Notes: generated by a model from the letters alone, not told the origin. A stretch of 64,000 bases of DNA from an uncultured Candidatus Actinomarina sp. (GCA_902510995.1 CABXDL010000001.1:49457-113456); one strand, 5' to 3'; counted from the first letter of the stretch, positions 4,902 to 52,301 are shown. Numbers and translations: made by a program.

Positions 4902-4976
4902 AACTTAATCCTACAAAACTTCGGCAAAAAGGGGGACTTATTATTGTTTATGGTTTATAAATTGAAAAAAGTCAGT

Positions 4977-5050
4977 GGGCCTAGTTAGATTTGAACTAAC
5001 GACCTCATCCTTATCAGGGATGCGCTCTAACCAGGCTGAGCTATAGGCCC
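4977..5050 (-). tRNA. tRNA-Ile (anticodon GAT)
   Basis: The reverse complement folds as a cloverleaf with acceptor GGGCCUA/UAGGCCC and anticodon loop CUGAUAA. Confidence 0.85.
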
Positions 5051-5139: not shown

Positions 5140-5212
5140 GGGGATGTAGCTCAGTTGGAAGAGCACCTGCTTTGCAAGCAGGGGGTCGTGGGTTCAAGTC
5201 CCATCATCTCCA
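5140..5212 (+). tRNA. tRNA-Ala (anticodon TGC)
   Basis: GGGGAUGUAGCUCAGUUGG start, anticodon loop UUUGCAA, and the G3:U70 Ala identity pair in the acceptor stem. Confidence 0.85.
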
Positions 5213-13584: not shown

Positions 13585-13673
13585 GGAGGGATCGCATAGT
13601 CTGGCCTAGTGCGCACGCTTGGAAAGCGTGTAAGGGTTTATCCCCTTCGAGGGTTCGAATCCCTCTCCCTCCG
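13585..13673 (+). tRNA. tRNA-Ser (anticodon GGA)
   Basis: Long variable arm. Anticodon loop UUGGAAA. Acceptor GGAGGGA/UCCCUCC. Confidence 0.8.
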
Positions 13674-13692
13674 CAAAAAATAATACCTTTTA

Positions 13693-13778
13693 GGAGGGAT
13701 GGCCGAGCGGACGAAGGCGATAGTCTTGAAAACTATTGTATGTATTCCATACCGTGGGTTCGAATCCCACTCCCTCCG
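13693..13778 (+). tRNA. tRNA-Ser (anticodon TGA)
   Basis: Long variable arm. Anticodon loop CUUGAAA. Confidence 0.8.
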
Positions 13779-13785
13779 CAAACTT

Positions 13786-13877
<92 letters not shown>

Positions 13878-13878
13878 A

Positions 13879-13952
13879 GCGCCTGTAGCTTAACTGGATA
13901 GAGCATCTGATTACGGATCAGAAGGTTGGGGGTTCGACTCCCTCCGGGCGCG
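13879..13952 (+). tRNA. tRNA-Arg (anticodon ACG)
   Basis: UAGCUUAACUGGAUAGAGC D-arm and anticodon loop UUACGGA. This is the TadA substrate. Confidence 0.8.
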
Positions 13953-27649: not shown

Positions 27650-29716
27650 TTACAGATTTCTTGAGGAGTTAAACACAACTGAAATACTAGAAGCAGCCAT
27701 TGCTAACGCAGCCATATTTGGCGATATATTTCCCGTTATAGCAATTGGTATCATTGCTGTGTTATAAATAAAAGCTAAGAATAGATTCTGATTTATTCTT
27801 TTTTGAGATTTTTTTGCTAGATCAATTATGTCAATAATTTTAGATATATCGCCTTTATGAATAATTATGTCTCCAGCACTCTGTGCTATTTGGGTACTAT
27901 GTGAACTTGCTATCCCTACATCAGCTTGTTTCAAAGCAGGCGAATCATTAATTCCATCTCCCACAAATGCAACCGTATTGTTTATTTGTTTTTCTTTTAC
28001 ATATTGAACTTTATCTTCAGGCATCTGACTTCCAATAGATTCCGAAACTCCTAAAGATTTTCCAAAATCCTGAACTTTTTTACTACTATCTCCTGATAAG
28101 ATTGAAACTTCGTAACTATCTGAAAGAGTATTTATAAATTGAGAATTAATCCTGACTTCTTCTTCTAGTTCTATAGAAAACATATTTTCATTTATCTTTA
28201 CATCCAAGATAGTTAAAGTACCCTCATTTACGGAAGCTTTTTTTATAGATACTTTTTTCTCATTTACTTTTCCTTCAACACCAACTCCTTCTTTTTCGAT
28301 GAAATTCTCTACTTCAAATAGGGGTATATTTTTATTTTCTGCTTCAAGCAATATACTTTTTGCAATTGGGTGGTTGGACTTTTGTTCTAGGCTTGCTATA
28401 TATTGCAATACTAAATCTGTGCTTCCTCCGTTTTTAGGGATAATTGCTTTAATCTTAAAAACACCAGTTGTTATTGTTCCAGTTTTATCAAATATAATGG
28501 TTGTCACTTTTGTAAGCTTTTGTAAGTAATCAAAATTTTTAAATATAAAACCTTTTTTATTGGATATAGAAGCTGACCTAAAAAGGACTATTGGAATTGC
28601 TAAACCTAAAGCGCAAGGGCATGCAATAACAAGAATAGATATAGTTATCTTTAATGCTACAAAAGTTTCTTGCTCAAAATAAATTAACCTCATGAAAAAA
28701 GTGAACAAACTAATAATAAGTACAGTAGGTACAAAAATTTGAGTCACTTTATCTATATTTTTTTGAACGGAGGGCTTTGTTGTTTGAGCTTTAAATATCA
28801 TATCTTCAATTAAATTAAAAGTCGTTTCACCACTTATTTTTGATACTTTTATTTTTATTTCGCCAGTAAGATTTATTGTCCCCGCTATAACTAAGCTATC
28901 TTTATTTTTTTCAACAGGAACTGATTCACCTGTAATAATACTTTCGTCAATAGTTGATGCTCCTGTTTGTATATGGCCGTCTAAAGGTATAACTTCTCCT
29001 GGAAGAACAACTATTTCTTCATCTTTTGATATTTCATCTATATTTTTCATTACGTATTCCCCGTTATAAACTCTTACATCTTTAGGGATTAGCTCTAAAA
29101 GGGCTTCAGATATTTCTACCGAAGATTTAATTGATACTTCTTCAATAGTTTTTCCAATTAATATAAATGAAACAATATACGCACCTGTTTCAAGAAACAT
29201 TAAGGGTTGTTTTGTTGATAATATGGCAAAAATGAAAGAAGAAAGACTACCAATTGAAATCAAGGTATCCATATTAAAGCTAAGTCTCATTAGATTCTTT
29301 ATTGCAGATATGTGAAATTTATAGCCAAACACAAAAATTACAACTATAGCGATACTGATTGCTTGAATTGTAAAACCATTCTCAATAAAAAGTGGTTTTA
29401 GAAGTATTGTTAGTATTAAAGATAGAACAGGTTTAATAAATTTTGTTACTTTCTTTTCGTCAACAATGTTTTCTTCGAATACAACTGCTGAATAGCCAAT
29501 TGATTTAATTTTTTTAATAACCTTATTCGTATCAATAGATTCATGAAACTCTACAATAGCTTTTTTCAATGGGAAATTAACTACCGCAGTTTTTATTGAA
29601 GCTTCTTTATCTAAGACTCTCTCAATTCTTGATGCACAGGCAGCACAGGTCATTCCCTCAATTGAGAGAGTTAGAGGCTTCCCTTCATTCGACAACTGTG
29701 TAACCATGATCGTCAA
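27650..29716 (-). CDS. copA: Cu+-translocating P1B-type ATPase
   Basis: N-terminal HMA domain (GMTCAACASRIE), CPC in TM6, DKTGT phosphorylation site, GDGINDSPAL hinge. Confidence 0.9.
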   Translation of the reverse strand: MTIMVTQLSNEGKPLTLSIEGMTCAACASRIERVLDKEASIKTAVVNFPLKKAIVEFHESIDTNKVIKKIKSIGYSAVVFEENIVDEKKVTKFIKPVLSLILTILLKPLFIENGFTIQAISIAIVVIFVFGYKFHISAIKNLMRLSFNMDTLISIGSLSSFIFAILSTKQPLMFLETGAYIVSFILIGKTIEEVSIKSSVEISEALLELIPKDVRVYNGEYVMKNIDEISKDEEIVVLPGEVIPLDGHIQTGASTIDESIITGESVPVEKNKDSLVIAGTINLTGEIKIKVSKISGETTFNLIEDMIFKAQTTKPSVQKNIDKVTQIFVPTVLIISLFTFFMRLIYFEQETFVALKITISILVIACPCALGLAIPIVLFRSASISNKKGFIFKNFDYLQKLTKVTTIIFDKTGTITTGVFKIKAIIPKNGGSTDLVLQYIASLEQKSNHPIAKSILLEAENKNIPLFEVENFIEKEGVGVEGKVNEKKVSIKKASVNEGTLTILDVKINENMFSIELEEEVRINSQFINTLSDSYEVSILSGDSSKKVQDFGKSLGVSESIGSQMPEDKVQYVKEKQINNTVAFVGDGINDSPALKQADVGIASSHSTQIAQSAGDIIIHKGDISKIIDIIDLAKKSQKRINQNLFLAFIYNTAMIPIAITGNISPNMAALAMAASSISVVFNSSRNL

Positions 29717-29888
29717 GCAATGTTCCTATTGCACTGATTGAGACTTCGGTATCTGAATTTATTAATACTTCTTTTTTTTCAATATCTACAAAAGCAGAAA
29801 TTATATTATTTTCATTATTAAGAATTGTTTCAATTGTATTTTTACAATGTTCACAACTTATTTCAGGTACTTTAAATTTTAATTCCAT
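29685..29888 (-). CDS. copZ: Copper chaperone (HMA domain)
   Basis: 67-aa ferredoxin-like fold with a CEHC metal-binding loop. It overlaps the copA start. Confidence 0.7.
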   Translation of the reverse strand: MELKFKVPEISCEHCKNTIETILNNENNIISAFVDIEKKEVLINSDTEVSISAIGTLLDDHGYTVVE

Positions 29889-29953: not shown

Positions 29954-30148
29954 TTAAGCTGTTTCTTGAAGTATTCTTCCTCTAACTCTTGGATACTTAA
30001 CTGGAGCATGATTAAAACAATTATTTCTCTTGTTATAAATACTCAATTTTGTATCGCAAGACTCATCGTTACAAGTACGACCCTGTTCAAAACTTTTTGA
30101 TGGCCTAATGCCACCTTTTATTTGACTAGCTTTTAGTCCGTCAGTCAT
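29954..30148 (-). CDS. Small zinc-ribbon protein resembling Z-type ribosomal protein bS14; paralog of 51948..52139
   Basis: C-x4-C-x12-C-x2-H. The SIYNKxxxCFxH and YPRVRG blocks resemble the S14-Z SVYRxFxLCRIC and PGVxK blocks. Confidence 0.5.
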   Translation of the reverse strand: MTDGLKASQIKGGIRPSKSFEQGRTCNDESCDTKLSIYNKRNNCFNHAPVKYPRVRGRILQETA

Positions 30149-30163
30149 TTCTTCCCTTTACTT

Positions 30164-30179
30164 TGTGAATATATTCACA
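30164..30179. promoter_or_regulatory. Perfect CRP/FNR-type palindrome TGTGA-N6-TCACA in a divergent promoter region
   Basis: TTGTGAATATATTCACAA lies between the minus-strand small gene and the plus-strand selW-like gene. Confidence 0.35.
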
Positions 30180-30255
30180 AGATTAACAACTTTACTTGTA
30201 GCATGCAAGCTTTTACAAAACTTTATATTTACTCTTCTTGTGATAGTATTTCATT

Positions 30256-30492
30256 ATGGAAATCAAACTAGAATTCTGTGTAGTCTGAAACTACACACCC
30301 CGTGCAGTTAGTACGGTTGAAGACATTTTAGAAAAATATGGTCAAGAAGTGAAATCTATCGACTTAATACCTACTACAGGTGGCAAATTTGAATTTTATT
30401 TAAATGGTGATTTGCTCTATTCAAAAATAGAAACAGATAGACACACTGAAGACGGAGAGATACTAGGTTTAATCGAAAAAGCGCTTAGTTGA
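30256..30492 (+). CDS. SelW/Rdx-family selenoprotein with in-frame UGA (Sec) at 30286..30288
   Basis: The translation MEIKLEFCVVUNYTPRA...TGGKFEFYLNGDLLYSKIETDRHTEDGEILGLIEKALS has a CxxU motif followed by NYxPRA. A SECIS-like hairpin at 30300..30316 sits 11 nt after the UGA. Confidence 0.6.
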
Positions 30493-48161: not shown

Positions 48162-48551
48162 TTAAAGCTTTTTACGTAAATCCTTATTTGATTTTTTAAC
48201 AATTTCATTTTTGTAACTTTTATGAATTTCATTTTCCTTTTTAGCTCTAGCTGACTTTTCGCTACTAATTTCTTCTTGTAGGAAATCTATTTTCTCTTGC
48301 ATTTCTTCTATTTTGTCTCTCATCTCATAAATAATTTTTATTCCCTCTAATTTAATCCCCCTTTGTGAAAGACTTGCAATTTGTATTAATTTATCAACAT
48401 CTTCCTGAGAATATCTTCTGGTTCCACCTTTTGTTCTATAAGGCTTAATTAAGCCCTTTTCTTCATATGTTCTGATTGTTTGGGGGTGTATCCCAGATAA
48501 AGTAGATGCTACTGAAATGAAGTATAAAGAAATGGTTTTTTTATCATTCAT
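48162..48551 (-). CDS. hspR: MerR-family heat-shock repressor HspR
   Basis: MerR HTH sequence pattern, and the last gene of the dnaK-grpE-dnaJ operon. The start was trimmed to MNDKK. Confidence 0.8.
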   Translation of the reverse strand: MNDKKTISLYFISVASTLSGIHPQTIRTYEEKGLIKPYRTKGGTRRYSQEDVDKLIQIASLSQRGIKLEGIKIIYEMRDKIEEMQEKIDFLQEEISSEKSARAKKENEIHKSYKNEIVKKSNKDLRKKL

Positions 48552-49623
48552 ATAAGTATCCTCGATACTCTTCAGGGGTCCCTTCATATCCTTCATCTCT
48601 AAATTCTTCTAGCTTCTTCTTTCCAGTTCTTGATAGTTTTGACGGAGGCTTTATAGCTACTCTTATATACAAGTCTCCAGACCTTCTACCTTGAGGAGAG
48701 ATACCTTCTCCTTTTATTTTGAAGGATTTACCACTTGATGTACCTTGAGGTATTTTTAGACTAACTGTTTTTTTAAGTGTTGGAATTTTTATTGTAGCTC
48801 CGAGTGCAGCTTCAGAGAAAAGCAAAGGAACTTCTAATATTAAATCGCTACCATTTCGTTTAAAAAATTTATGTGGCTCTACTCCTACTTGAACTAATAA
48901 GTCACCATCTGGAGCGCCGGCATCTCCTGGACCTCCATAGCCTCTTAATCTAATTACAGTTCCATTATCAACACCAGCAGGTACCTTCACTTTTATAGTT
49001 TCGTTTTTTATTACAGACCCTTGTGCTCTACACGCTTTACATTCCTTATCTATTACATTCCCCTGACCCTTACAGGCTGAACAAGGTTGCGCAAAAGAAA
49101 AGAAACCTTGGTTAGATGCTGTTTGTCCGCTTCCGCTACAAATATTACATGTATGAAAGGCGTTACCATTTTCTGATCCATTACCTTTACAGTCTTCACA
49201 AACAACTTCTTTTCTAAGGGGGACATTAGTTTCTATCCCTGATGCAGCATCAGTAAATGAGATTGTAAGATTTGTTTGATATGTTTGACCCTTTCTTCTG
49301 CCAGCTCCTCCAAATCCGAATATATCACCAAAAATATCTCCAATATCTACATTGAAGCCTTGACCACCTGAAAATCCAGAGAATCCGGAAGCACCCATTG
49401 TTCTAACTTGATCATACTCTTGACGCTTTCCCTCATCAGACAAGATAGCACTAGCTTCTGATATTTCTTTGAATTTTTTCTCTGCCTCTGTATCTCCAGG
49501 GTTTAGATCAGGATGATTTTCTCTTGCTAATTTTTTGTAAGCTTTCTTAATGTCATCAGTACTTGCATCTATTGAAACACCAAGAATGGCATAAAAATCT
49601 TTTTCTAGCCAGTCTCTATTCAC
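48544..49623 (-). CDS. dnaJ: Chaperone DnaJ
   Basis: J-domain with HPD, a Gly/Phe-rich linker, and four CxxCxGxG zinc-finger repeats. Confidence 0.9.
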   Translation of the reverse strand: MNRDWLEKDFYAILGVSIDASTDDIKKAYKKLARENHPDLNPGDTEAEKKFKEISEASAILSDEGKRQEYDQVRTMGASGFSGFSGGQGFNVDIGDIFGDIFGFGGAGRRKGQTYQTNLTISFTDAASGIETNVPLRKEVVCEDCKGNGSENGNAFHTCNICSGSGQTASNQGFFSFAQPCSACKGQGNVIDKECKACRAQGSVIKNETIKVKVPAGVDNGTVIRLRGYGGPGDAGAPDGDLLVQVGVEPHKFFKRNGSDLILEVPLLFSEAALGATIKIPTLKKTVSLKIPQGTSSGKSFKIKGEGISPQGRRSGDLYIRVAIKPPSKLSRTGKKKLEEFRDEGYEGTPEEYRGYLYE

Positions 49624-50107
49624 TTTGAACTTTAACCATTGCTGGCCTTATCAATCTATCTTCTAATTTGTAACCTTTTCGCAAAACCTCTTCAACTATT
49701 TGGTCGTCACCTTCACCCGAGTGTTCTATTGCTTCATGGTATGAGGGGTCAAATTCTTCCCCTACTCCTGGTACTTCAGTAATATTTAAATTTTCAAGAA
49801 AAGTTAGCACTAATTTATATAGTGCCTCAAGTTCTTTAGGAACTTCTTCTTGGCCCATTGCTATTTCAAAGTTATCTATAAGAGGGAAAAGTCCAGCCAA
49901 TATAATTGATAGTGACCCTACTAATTGATTTTCTTTATCTTTTTCGGTTCTTTTTTTAAAATTGTCAAAATCTGCAGCAAGTCTTAAGTAGTCATCTTTT
50001 ATTTTTTCATAATCTTCTAAAGGGATAGAGGGCGATTCTTCTTCTGTAGAATTATCTACATTTTTTTCATCATCTTTTTTCTTAGATGATGACTTTTTTT
50101 TACTCAT
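49616..50107 (-). CDS. grpE: Nucleotide-exchange factor GrpE
   Basis: GrpE coiled-coil and beta-domain pattern. Confidence 0.9.
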
Positions 50108-51914
50108 CTTCTTCTACGACTTCACCATCAACAACATCATCATTAGTTTCTTCATTTTCAGAAACTTCATTACTTTGTTGAGCTTCAGCATAAAGTTTTT
50201 CTGCAAATGATTGACTAGCTTTTGTTAACTCCTCAATTGAATTCTTCATTTCATCAAGACTTGCTTCTTGACTCTCAAGTACTTTTGATAAGTTATCTTT
50301 ACTTTCATTGATAGCTTTAATTTCCTCATCAGTAGCTTTATCTTTATTCTCTTCAAGCATTTTTTCTGTAGATGTAACCATGCTTTCAGCTAAGTTTCTT
50401 GTCTCAACAAGCTCTTTCTTTTTAGCATCTTCATTTGCATGCTCCTCAGCATCCTTAACCATTCTCTCTATTTCATCTTCTTCGAGAGCAGTACCACCAG
50501 TTATTGTTATAGCTTGTTCCTTACCAGTACCAAGATCTTTTGCATTAACATTAACTATTCCGTTAGCATCAATATCAAAAGTAACTTCAATCTGGGGTGT
50601 TCCAGCTTTTGCTGAAGGGATATCAGTTAAATTAAATTTACCTAATGACTTATTACCAGAAGCCATTTCTCTTTCGCCTTGAAGTACATGAATTTCTACT
50701 TGAGTCTGTCCGTCGTCAGCCGTTGAAAACGTTTCAGATCTTTTTGTTGGTATTGTTGTATTTCTTTCAATCATTTTTGTCATAATTCCACCCTTTGTTT
50801 CAACACCAAGAGTTAAGGGAGTAACATCAAGAAGCAAGACATCTTTAACATCACCTTTTAGTACACCTGCTTGAATAGCAGCACCTGAAGCTACTACTTC
50901 GTCCGGATTAACACCTTTCGAGGGGTCTTTTCCAGTTATAGATTTTACCAGTGTTTGAACAGCAGGAATTCTAGTTGAACCACCAACTAAGACTATGTGT
51001 TCAATATCTGAAAAAGATAATCCAGCGTCTTTTACAGCTTTATTTACAGGGTCTTTTGTTCTATCTACAAGATCTGATGTAATTTTTTCAAATTCACTTC
51101 TTGATAACTTTTCTAACAAGTGCTGCGGTCCTGAATCGTTAGCTGTAATAAAAGGTAAGTTAATTTCAGTCTCAGTTGTTGAAGAAAGTTCTATTTTTGC
51201 TTTTTCAGCACCTTCTTTTATTCTCTGCATTGCCATTTTATCTTTTGAAATATCAATTCCTGTTGAAGACTTAAATTTTTCAACTAACCAGTCCATTACT
51301 CTTTCATCCCAGTCATCTCCACCTAGTTTTGAATCACCTGATGTTGACTTAACTTCAAAAACTCCTTCTGAAATCTCTAATACAGAAACATCAAACGTTC
51401 CTCCGCCTAAGTCATAGACCAAAATTTTTTGATCTTCATTATTTTCTAATCCATAGGCTAAAGCCGCCGCAGTAGGTTCATTAATAATTCTTAATACATT
51501 TAATCCTGCGATTTGCCCAGCTTCTTTAGTAGCTTGTCTTTCCGCATCGTTGAAATATGCTGGAACTGTTATTACAGCATCTGTAACATCTTCACCTATA
51601 TAGCTTTCAGCATCTCTTTTTAATTTTTGAAGAATCCTTGCAGAAACTTCTTGAGGTGTATATTCTTTATTTTCAAACTTTTCTTTCCAACTTGAGCCAA
51701 TTTTTCTTTTTATTGACCTTACAGTATTATCTGGATTTGTAATTGCTTGTCTTTTAGCTAATTCACCGACCAATACTTCTTCGCCTTTAAAAGCAACAAT
51801 AGAAGGAGTTGTTCTATTACCTTCTGCGTTAGCTATTACAGTCGGCTCTCCGCCTTCTAAAACAGCAACTACGCTATTCGTAGTGCCTAAATCAATACCT
51901 ACTGCTTTTCCCAT
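50100..51914 (-). CDS. dnaK: Chaperone DnaK (Hsp70)
   Basis: [17 protein letters not shown] and other Hsp70 signatures, with an EEVD-like acidic tail. Confidence 0.95.
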
Positions 51915-51947: not shown

Positions 51948-52139
51948 TTATTGTTCTCTTGGTAAATGCCCTCTAACCCTTGGATAAGAGACTGGAGAGT
52001 GAAGAAAACATAATTTCTTTTTGTTGTAAATGCTAATTACAGTCGCGCATCCGGAAAAATCACAGATACGACCTGATGTGTAGCTCTTAGATCTTCTGAC
52101 ACCAGGCTTCACTGAAGAAGCTGTTAATGTAGAACTCAT
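51948..52139 (-). CDS. Small zinc-ribbon bS14-like protein; paralog of 29954..30148; first gene of the dnaK operon
   Basis: 63 aa with C-x4-C-x12-C-x2-H and shared RxSKSY..GR.C...SIYNK...CF.H.PV.YPRVRG blocks. It lies 33 nt upstream of dnaK. Confidence 0.5.
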   Translation of the reverse strand: MSSTLTASSVKPGVRRSKSYTSGRICDFSGCATVISIYNKKKLCFLHSPVSYPRVRGHLPREQ

Positions 52140-52175: not shown

Positions 52176-52201
52176 AAATCTAAGTAAATATACTTAGATT
52201 T
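52176..52201. promoter_or_regulatory. HAIR-like inverted repeat (candidate HspR operator)
   Basis: AAATCTAAGT-AAATAT-ACTTAGATTT has perfect 10-bp arms. Its architecture resembles HAIR (CTTGAGT-N7-ACTCAAG). Confidence 0.4.
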
Positions 52202-52301
52202 AATATAAATATACTATATTTCTGTTTTAATACAAACTTTTTTTATTTTTTACTAAAAAAAGCTATTCTTTCATTACTTTTAATGCTGATATTATTGAAT
52301 A

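Follow-up and report, generated by a model that had tools for sequence, protein, structure and literature searches.

Background

The WhiB-like (Wbl) proteins of Actinomycetota and their phages are small, basic and metal-centred, carry a [4Fe-4S] cluster bound by four cysteines, bind region 4 of sigma-A, and occur as several paralogs that are each linked to a different stress or regulatory circuit. Another small metal-binding protein is ribosomal protein bS14 in its Z-type form, which has a zinc ribbon with the ligands C-x2-C-x12-C-x2-C and a C-terminal PGVxKASW sequence, and which is encoded in the spc operon. The SBP DNA-binding domain of plants is eukaryotic and contains two zinc sites, Zn1 with a Cys3-His ligand set (C-x4-C-x16-C-x2-H) and Zn2 with the spacing C-x2-C-x3-H-x11-C. 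Finally, DafA is a small protein of the Thermus dnaK operon, which assembles DnaK-DnaJ and also binds ribosomes.

The Actinomarinales have almost no recognisable regulators, two sigma factors and no two-component systems (PMC7771536). In a 64,000-nt stretch of DNA from an uncultured Candidatus Actinomarina sp. (hereafter the window), a preliminary description had noted two small paralogous proteins, one encoded before copper-export genes and the other in a heat-shock operon, and had proposed that they could be stress-linked derivatives of bS14 or a new small regulator family. We report here that the two are paralogs within an undescribed family of Acidimicrobiia and other Actinomycetota, each with one putative Cys3-His zinc knuckle, and compare this family and its gene contexts with the systems described above.

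Results and discussion

Two paralogous genes under strong purifying selection

Both ORFs were confirmed on the minus strand of the window (32.9% GC), and are named here copy a and copy b (Table 1). BLASTP aligned the two proteins without gaps at 32/62 identities (52%, E 2e-24), in agreement with the earlier observation that about half of their residues are common to both, and a tblastn search combined with a Cys/His motif scan found no third copy in the 64-kb window. The close homologs carry the names 'Candidatus Actinomarina' or 'Acidimicrobiia bacterium', and at the genome level the strongest matches were to SAGs and MAGs of Actinomarina, which places the window in a genome of the Candidatus Actinomarinales type. 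Outside these two loci, the window also contains four tandem tRNA genes (13585-13952, plus strand) and a divergent pair of tRNA genes (4976-5050, minus strand, and 5140-5212, plus strand).

Table 1. Positions of copies a and b, their neighbours and their candidate control elements in the window
Feature	Position	Strand	Description and basis
Copy a	29954..30148	-	ORF; 64-aa protein with putative CCCH zinc knuckle, pI 9.7
Copy a residues			Putative zinc ligands C26, C31, C44 and H47; PRVRG at residues 53-57
copZ, copA	27650..29888	-	ORFs lying next to copy a on its downstream side; copZ 29685-29888, copA (P-type ATPase) 27650-29716
Shine-Dalgarno-like sequence of copy a	30151..30158	-	AAGGGAAG; from the sequence, purine-rich block in all aligned loci
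Putative sigma-70-type promoter of copy a	30180..30208	-	TTGCAT (30203-30208), 17 nt, TAATCT (30180-30185)
Palindrome upstream of copy a	30163..30180	.	Perfect 18-bp palindrome TTGTGAATATATTCACAA (TGTGA-N6-TCACA); candidate repressor operator
Copy b	51948..52139	-	ORF at the head of the dnaK operon; 63-aa paralog with pI 10.2
dnaK, grpE, dnaJ, hspR	48162..51914	-	ORFs; dnaK 50100-51914, grpE 49616-50107, dnaJ 48544-49623, hspR 48162-48596
Putative promoter of copy b-dnaK	52208..52235	-	TTGTAT (52230-52235), 16 nt, TATATT (52208-52213); sequence and conservation
Inverted repeat upstream of copy b	52176..52201	.	AAATCTAAGTA-TATT-TACTTAGATTT; HAIR-like candidate HspR operator just downstream of the -10

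Copies a and b are true genes under strong purifying selection, which includes the N-terminal tail; pN/pS was 0.058 for copy a and 0.17 for copy b, as calculated from 17 orthologs per copy (with one frameshifted contig in the copy b set) and with a synonymous divergence of about 0.67 that is near saturation. Conservation of both copies together with their contexts was found in related genomes, at 57 Actinomarinales loci for copy a and on about 50 contigs for copy b. Over the 57 loci copy a remains 88-100% identical, with the neighbouring CopA at only ~47%, and between orders the respective values are 61% and 33%. Among the subgroups compared, copy b is nearest to copy a (51%), which suggests that the pair arose by duplication within or near the Actinomarinales lineage.

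An undescribed family of small Cys3-His proteins

With a profile built from 16 sequences, an exhaustive HMMER search retrieved 1,216 cluster representatives at E<=1e-3, of which 152 also passed E<=1e-10. Nearly all are 60-110 aa in length, with the typical member being a basic protein of ~65 aa. The family signature R-x-C-x4-C-x12-C-x2-H...P-R-x-R-G is part of a longer consensus, ...R-x2-K-x-[YF]-x2-G-R-V-C-x4-C-x-T-x-L-S-x-Y-N-x4-C-x2-H-x-P-x3-P-R-V-R-G. In an alignment of 104 members R24, C31, C44 and H47 are invariant and C26, S36, Y38, N39, R54, R56 and G57 are at least 90% conserved, and the shared pattern and C-x4-C...C-x2-H ligand set first noted by comparing only the two copies are thus genuine.

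Copies a and b had no match in Pfam or NCBIfam at E<=10, there was no precomputed Pfam domain on any named family member, and all named members are annotated as 'hypothetical protein' in metagenome-assembled genomes (MAGs) of Acidimicrobiia or other Actinomycetota. A Pfam scan of 45 diverse relatives returned only very weak matches to CxC6, EsV_1_7_cys and Zf_WRKY19, which are cysteine motifs of the C-x4-C...C-x2-H type. No description of the family was found in Pfam, NCBIfam or the literature searched, and a literature search on small zinc-finger proteins in dnaK or litR operons gave nothing relevant. Members come from Acidimicrobiia of marine and soil habitats and from some phages of these bacteria. 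A tblastn search gave no match in GenBank phages or PLSDB plasmids. A few odd taxon labels among the members look like binning errors. Three typical Actinomarina/Acidimicrobiia loci (L035, L055 and P0318) are on contigs that bear the names Marinoscillum sp., Methanobacteriota archaeon and Halobacteriales archaeon; these labels probably reflect MAG binning contamination.

The AlphaFold2 (AF2) model is confident (pLDDT 81, pTM 0.41) but almost without secondary structure and essentially loop-only. A Foldseek search with this model found nothing in the PDB, and its sole BFVD matches were two phage proteins, both uncharacterised, at E 0.3-1.

No detectable relationship with ribosomal protein S14

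The likeness to Z-type bS14 that was noted in the preliminary description can be seen by eye, as both are basic proteins of ~61-64 aa, including a basic N-terminus, with one zinc site, little secondary structure and a local S-x-Y-x-K-x3-C sequence, but statistically it is no better than chance. Pfam Ribosomal_S14 gave no match to copies a and b at E<=10, nor to any of the 45 relatives at E<=1, and Pfam scans likewise gave no match to other ribosomal protein families or to WhiB. When the 104-sequence family profile was compared with Z-type S14 sequences verified against the PDB, hhalign gave a probability of 0.2% with a best alignment of 17 columns, and in a local rerun the score of 8.65 was below the median of 8.9 obtained with 100 column-shuffled S14 alignments. 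A PDB profile search with the family recovered no ribosomal protein, but instead the SBP and TAZ zinc fingers. The putative ligands also differ, with C-x4-C-x12-C-x2-H in the family and C-x2-C-x12-C-x2-C in the bS14 ribbon, the C-terminal PGVxKASW is absent and P-R-x-R-G is found in the family, and the genes of copies a and b lie outside the spc operon, with no ribosomal protein genes near either copy.

Since the profile tests failed, the ligands are wrong and PGVxKASW is missing, descent from S14 is unsupported, and S14 homology was rejected by hmmscan, by the PDB profile search and by hhalign with its shuffle controls. We therefore consider it highly improbable that the two proteins are alternative ribosomal proteins derived from Z-type bS14 and linked to stress, in the manner of zinc-independent ribosomal protein paralogs. 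What speaks for such an origin is the similar length, the basic N-terminus and the S.Y.K...C spacing, which is also where the best 17-column hhalign alignment is found, together with the precedent of the Streptomyces SigR regulon, which contains an L31 paralog and so indicates that zinc-ribbon ribosomal protein paralogs occur in stress regulons. Set against this are the lack of a profile match for the two proteins and 45 relatives, the score below the shuffled median, the different ligands, and the many paralogs and phage copies of the family, which are unlike S14. A canonical rpsZ was not found in the 64-kb window or in any of the loci examined. An rpsZ- or rpsN-like label is a tempting but wrong annotation for these genes, and should not be used.

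Comparison with SBP, Wbl and DafA proteins

The nearest known pattern is Zn1 of the plant SBP domain, with a weak match (E 0.34) in the PDB profile search. The hhalign probability against SBP Zn1 was 21% with default settings and 76% with -M first, the latter with a score of 24.6, the highest score among 100 column shuffles being 14.0; two of the three SBP sequences were entered by hand, and the likeness partly rests on these. The ligand order C-x4-C...C-x2-H is the same in both, as are the L-S after the second Cys, the basic Y-[NH]-[KR]-[KR] stretch before the third Cys and the H-[AS] after the third Cys. However, the ligand spacer is 12 residues in the family and 16 in SBP Zn1, Zn2 is wholly absent with no second Cys/His cluster present, and no family member scanned matched Pfam SBP. 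The SBP domain is eukaryotic, and we treat the weak SBP likeness as a lead and not as proof of membership.

The comparison with Wbl proteins serves as a working analogy only, based on the small, basic and metal-centred nature of the proteins, their restriction to Actinomycetota and the phages of these, and the several paralogs each linked to a different stress or regulatory circuit. In contrast to the four cysteines of Wbl proteins the family has three Cys and one His, with zinc as the presumed metal, and neither a Whib Pfam match (copies a, b and 45 relatives) nor any sequence similarity was detected. The DafA protein of Thermus thermophilus, compared here by description, resembles copy b in being a small protein co-transcribed with dnaK, grpE and dnaJ, but its gene follows dnaJ whereas copy b comes first, and DafA is not known as a zinc protein.

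Gene context of copy a

As described previously for the window, copy a precedes copZ-copA, with its end 65 nt upstream of copZ. The copZ-copA genes follow directly downstream in 57/57 Actinomarinales loci, and HMA and E1-E2_ATPase domains were identified in the orthologous cop loci. In other Acidimicrobiia, 18/23 loci have copy a followed by a gap of ~200 nt and csoR-copZ-copA; the remaining five comprise one locus where copy a is divergent from csoR (L085), one with only copA, located on the other side (L089), two truncated loci, and one without cop genes (L078). No csoR gene is present in the Actinomarinales cop locus. The whole lnt...PAC2 region around copy a is syntenic, and the adjacency to cop may be inherited synteny. 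The exceptions L078, L085 and L089 show that the association is conserved but not obligatory.

In seven Actinomarinales lineages a strong intrinsic terminator, AAGCCCCTA-N4-TAGGGGCTT followed by Ts, separates copy a from copZ, and copy a is thus best seen as its own transcription unit, as it appears to be from sequence; the lineage of the window itself has a 65-nt AT-rich spacer without terminator. Two consecutive conserved hairpins are located between the copy a stop codon and copZ in L016, L020, L022, L049, L053, L054 and L067, the first being GAAATCTC-CCCCAAG-AGATTTC and the second the GC-rich terminator, with neither present in the lineage of the window. A CsoR operator and a CopY box were also considered for the spacer, but the GC-rich hairpin with its T-run is better read as an intrinsic terminator.

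Upstream of copy a, every Actinomarinales locus contains CTTGCAT (-35) and TAAnCT (-10) at a distance of 17 nt, visible in the alignment as CTTGCAT...TGTTAAnC. The first base of the palindrome is also the last of the putative -10, so that the palindrome would cover the predicted start site. It is essentially invariant in 57/57 Actinomarinales loci (two single-base variants) with diverging flanks, and neither the window nor ~906 kb of related DNA contains a second TGTGA-N6-TCACA site. The palindrome agrees exactly with the textbook CRP/GlxR (CRP/FNR-type) consensus; no CRP-family gene was found among the ~20 window proteins scanned. The NrdR box, the LexA/Cheo box and the ArsR/SmtB 12-2-12 site were rejected for this palindrome on wrong orientation or spacing, as judged by eye. 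Rfam detected nothing upstream of copies a and b.

Outside the Actinomarinales, copy a orthologs are preceded by GGGAA[CG]-N17-nGTTG at a fixed position (-56 to -65) in 17/23 loci using a strict pattern with a background of 0.05 per 200 nt, and L071, one of the other six, has TGTTG at its -10 by eye. This resembles the GGAAT/GTTG promoters of SigR (PMC5005934), and on this sequence pattern we assign these orthologs an ECF (SigR/SigH/SigE-type) promoter. The ECF-type promoter is absent in the window, with the sigma-70-like promoter in its place, and the presence of only two sigma factors in Actinomarinales (PMC7771536) is consistent with promoter replacement at copy a.

High-GC Acidimicrobiia (L069-L091) also have a 5′ UTR hairpin ~45 nt upstream of the copy a orthologs, between the ECF-type -10 and the ATG, in which a pyrimidine anti-Shine-Dalgarno sequence (GGCUUCU, GGCCCC or GGCUCC) pairs with the Shine-Dalgarno sequence (AGGGGCC or GGAGGCC). 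The arms vary by lineage yet stay complementary, with energies no better than those of shuffled sequences, and the hairpin could be an element for translational control, or thermometer-like. In about half of the Actinomarinales loci (the L015-L068 subset), ~2 kb of extra DNA is located between copy a and the divergent Rdx gene, and the sequence upstream of copy a is protein-coding-like, as compared with the start of the Rdx gene in the window, suggesting that DNA was inserted or deleted here in particular lineages.

In the window, copy a is divergent from a gene (30256-30492, plus strand) for a SelW-like Rdx protein, whose reading frame contains a TGA (30286-30288) at the C-x-x-U position. The protein starts as MEIKLEFCVV*NYTPR..., and after replacement of Sec by Cys it matches Pfam Rdx (2-73/74, E 9e-17). 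This TGA falls within a hairpin loop, and the hairpin, TGTGTAGT-CTGAA-ACTACACA (30277-30297), is conserved with compensatory changes in other Actinomarina loci, making this gene a candidate selenoprotein gene or recoding site in a 1.1-Mb genome.

Copy b is the first gene of a heat-shock operon

As stated in the earlier description, copy b opens the dnaK-grpE-dnaJ-hspR operon. It lies 33 nt upstream of dnaK on the same strand, with no terminator between the two in the window, and the MerR-family gene hspR is found at the operon end (MerR_1 match, E 6e-16). HSP70 and GrpE domains were detected in orthologous loci, and the order proC (divergent)-copy b-dnaK-grpE is found on ~50 marine metagenome contigs, with copy b being 75-100% identical. 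The upstream region of copy b is 160 nt, which is long for a lineage with a median intergenic spacer of 2-3 bp (PMC7771536).

In this upstream region TTTGCAT (-35) ... TATATTT is conserved across the copy b loci, and six bases after the -10 follows the inverted repeat ATCTAAGTA-N4-TACTTAGAT, which is kept in 33 distinct copy b upstream regions. The most divergent loci, L145 and L147, have TCTTAGT-N7-ACTAAGA with both arms changed together. The repeat is similar, although not identical, to the HAIR consensus CTTGAGT-N7-ACTCAAG (PMC6102357), and is a HAIR-like candidate operator for HspR; there were no further HAIR-like sites in the window. As copy b is predicted to be co-transcribed with dnaK-grpE-dnaJ-hspR behind this repeat, it should be heat-inducible, and we infer that copy b is the first cistron of an HspR-repressed operon.

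Other subgroups and phage members

One subgroup of the family, in UBA5794 actinobacteria, is encoded directly after genes for an ECF sigma factor and a zf-HC2 anti-sigma factor and before cydABCD. Another is found 12-30 nt upstream of a regulator with HTH_17 and B12-binding domains (LitR/CarH-like, MerR-type) in three lineages, two of which have GGGAAT-N18-GTT promoters. Many other members stand alone in unrelated contexts. A low-GC branch of the family is represented on a 65-kb IMG/VR viral contig, inside a replication/recombination module with genes for a replication initiator, an Erf-like annealing protein and an HNH/EndoVII endonuclease. The profile of copies a and b matched nothing in an IMG/VR scan, where the low-GC phage-type member was the only one found. 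In the PHROGs collection, phrog_10853, which carries no annotation, was matched by 28/45 family members with a best E of 2.5e-5 (copies a and b were under the threshold), and with this many matches probably represents the branch of the family found in phages.

Possible functions of copies a and b

The reading we favour, tentatively and at somewhat less than an even chance, is that copies a and b are stress-induced mini-regulators that bind nucleic acid or the transcription machinery. Different paralogs are wired into different stress circuits, with copy b predicted to be co-transcribed with dnaK-grpE-dnaJ-hspR from behind a HAIR-like operator and hence expected to be heat-inducible. Copy a is a separate unit beside copper-export genes, where the Actinomarinales have a candidate palindromic operator and the other Acidimicrobiia an ECF-sigma-type promoter. 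The zinc knuckle and the basic tails would contact nucleic acid or the transcription machinery, making the family a functional analogue of Wbl proteins: small, metal-centred, with many paralogs, placed in stress or developmental circuits, and phage-borne. We favour this reading because of the SBP-like knuckle, the basic tails (pI ~10), the many differently wired paralogs, the sigma/anti-sigma and MerR-type regulator neighbours and the copy in a phage replication module. The retention of two paralogs in the reduced Actinomarina genome, which has 1.1 Mb and 29-48 paralogs in total (PMC7771536), was also counted in its favour. Against it stand the loop-only AF2 model for which Foldseek found no PDB match, and the weak SBP likeness, which covers one of the two SBP zinc sites only. 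Furthermore, many members have unrelated contexts, and the cop adjacency may be synteny, with L078 lacking cop. The operators of copies a and b are better explained by a CRP-type regulator and HspR, and so provide no evidence of DNA binding by the two proteins. The preliminary suggestion of a new small regulator family holds as far as it concerns a family without annotation whose paralogs are placed within stress regulons or next to them, and we infer the rest, namely the activity of the two proteins as regulators, their zinc binding and their heat and ECF inducibility.

A chain that is extended and conserved throughout would also be expected of a protein with the ribosome, RNA or a chaperone as its partner, and the main rival explanation is that the proteins are stress factors, unrelated to S14, which dock as an extended zinc-knuckle peptide on one of these; we regard this as improbable on balance. 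The conservation over the whole length, resembling that of ribosomal proteins (61% for copy a between orders versus 33% for CopA), would agree with it, as would a basic protein with an all-loop AF2 model, typical of folding on a partner, and the co-transcription of copy b with dnaK/grpE/dnaJ, for which DafA is a precedent. However, Pfam, NCBIfam and PDB profile searches found no similarity to known ribosomal or ribosome-associated families, and the differently wired paralogs and the copy in a phage replication module fit a regulator better. We consider it unlikely that the Cys3-His site is a metal or redox element, that is a thiol switch or a Cu(I)/Zn sensor or buffer in copper, thiol-oxidative, heat or light stress. 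Cysteine-rich zinc sites do act as redox switches in RsrA and Hsp33, the ECF promoters are SigR/SigH-like, one subgroup follows a gene for a zinc-binding zf-HC2 anti-sigma factor, and the cop genes adjoin copy a with the regularity described above (csoR-copZ-copA in 18/23 Acidimicrobiia loci, copZ-copA in 57/57 Actinomarinales loci, and L085 divergent). One metal site per 64 aa would nevertheless give poor buffering, the gene persists without cop in L078, terminators precede copZ in several lineages, and metal handling alone would leave the invariant basic tails and R-x-R-G unexplained. Slightly less likely again is autoregulation, with copy a acting as repressor on the 18-bp palindrome and copy b on its inverted repeat, in replacement of a lost CsoR or ECF sigma factor. 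A different and nearly invariant palindrome does lie over the predicted start site of each copy, and for copy a it is unique in the window and in ~906 kb, with CsoR missing and no CRP gene among the window proteins scanned; yet TGTGA-N6-TCACA is the textbook CRP/GlxR site. The copy b repeat, moreover, is HAIR-like with hspR in the same operon (PMC6102357), the high-GC orthologs lack a comparable palindrome, and neither protein has an evident dimerisation element.

An extended version of the favoured mini-regulator reading sees the family as the Acidimicrobiia counterpart of WhiB, consisting of SBP-like mini-factors binding DNA or sigma/RNA polymerase, with one paralog per stress circuit (heat via HspR, thiol or envelope stress via ECF, light via LitR, and the copper neighbourhood), where the two Actinomarina copies would replace lost regulators and copy a would repress itself through the 18-bp palindrome. 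In this complete form the proposal is an unlikely one; if true, it would give the plant SBP zinc finger a first relative in bacteria.

Conclusions

Few marine Actinomycetota are as abundant or as streamlined as the Candidatus Actinomarinales, and the retention of two copies with a conservation like that of core machinery, placed with heat-shock and copper-export genes, argues for an important role in the handling of stress. With more than 1,200 clusters that lack a description in Pfam, NCBIfam or the literature found, the family offers a testable target for small-protein biology in uncultured Acidimicrobiia.
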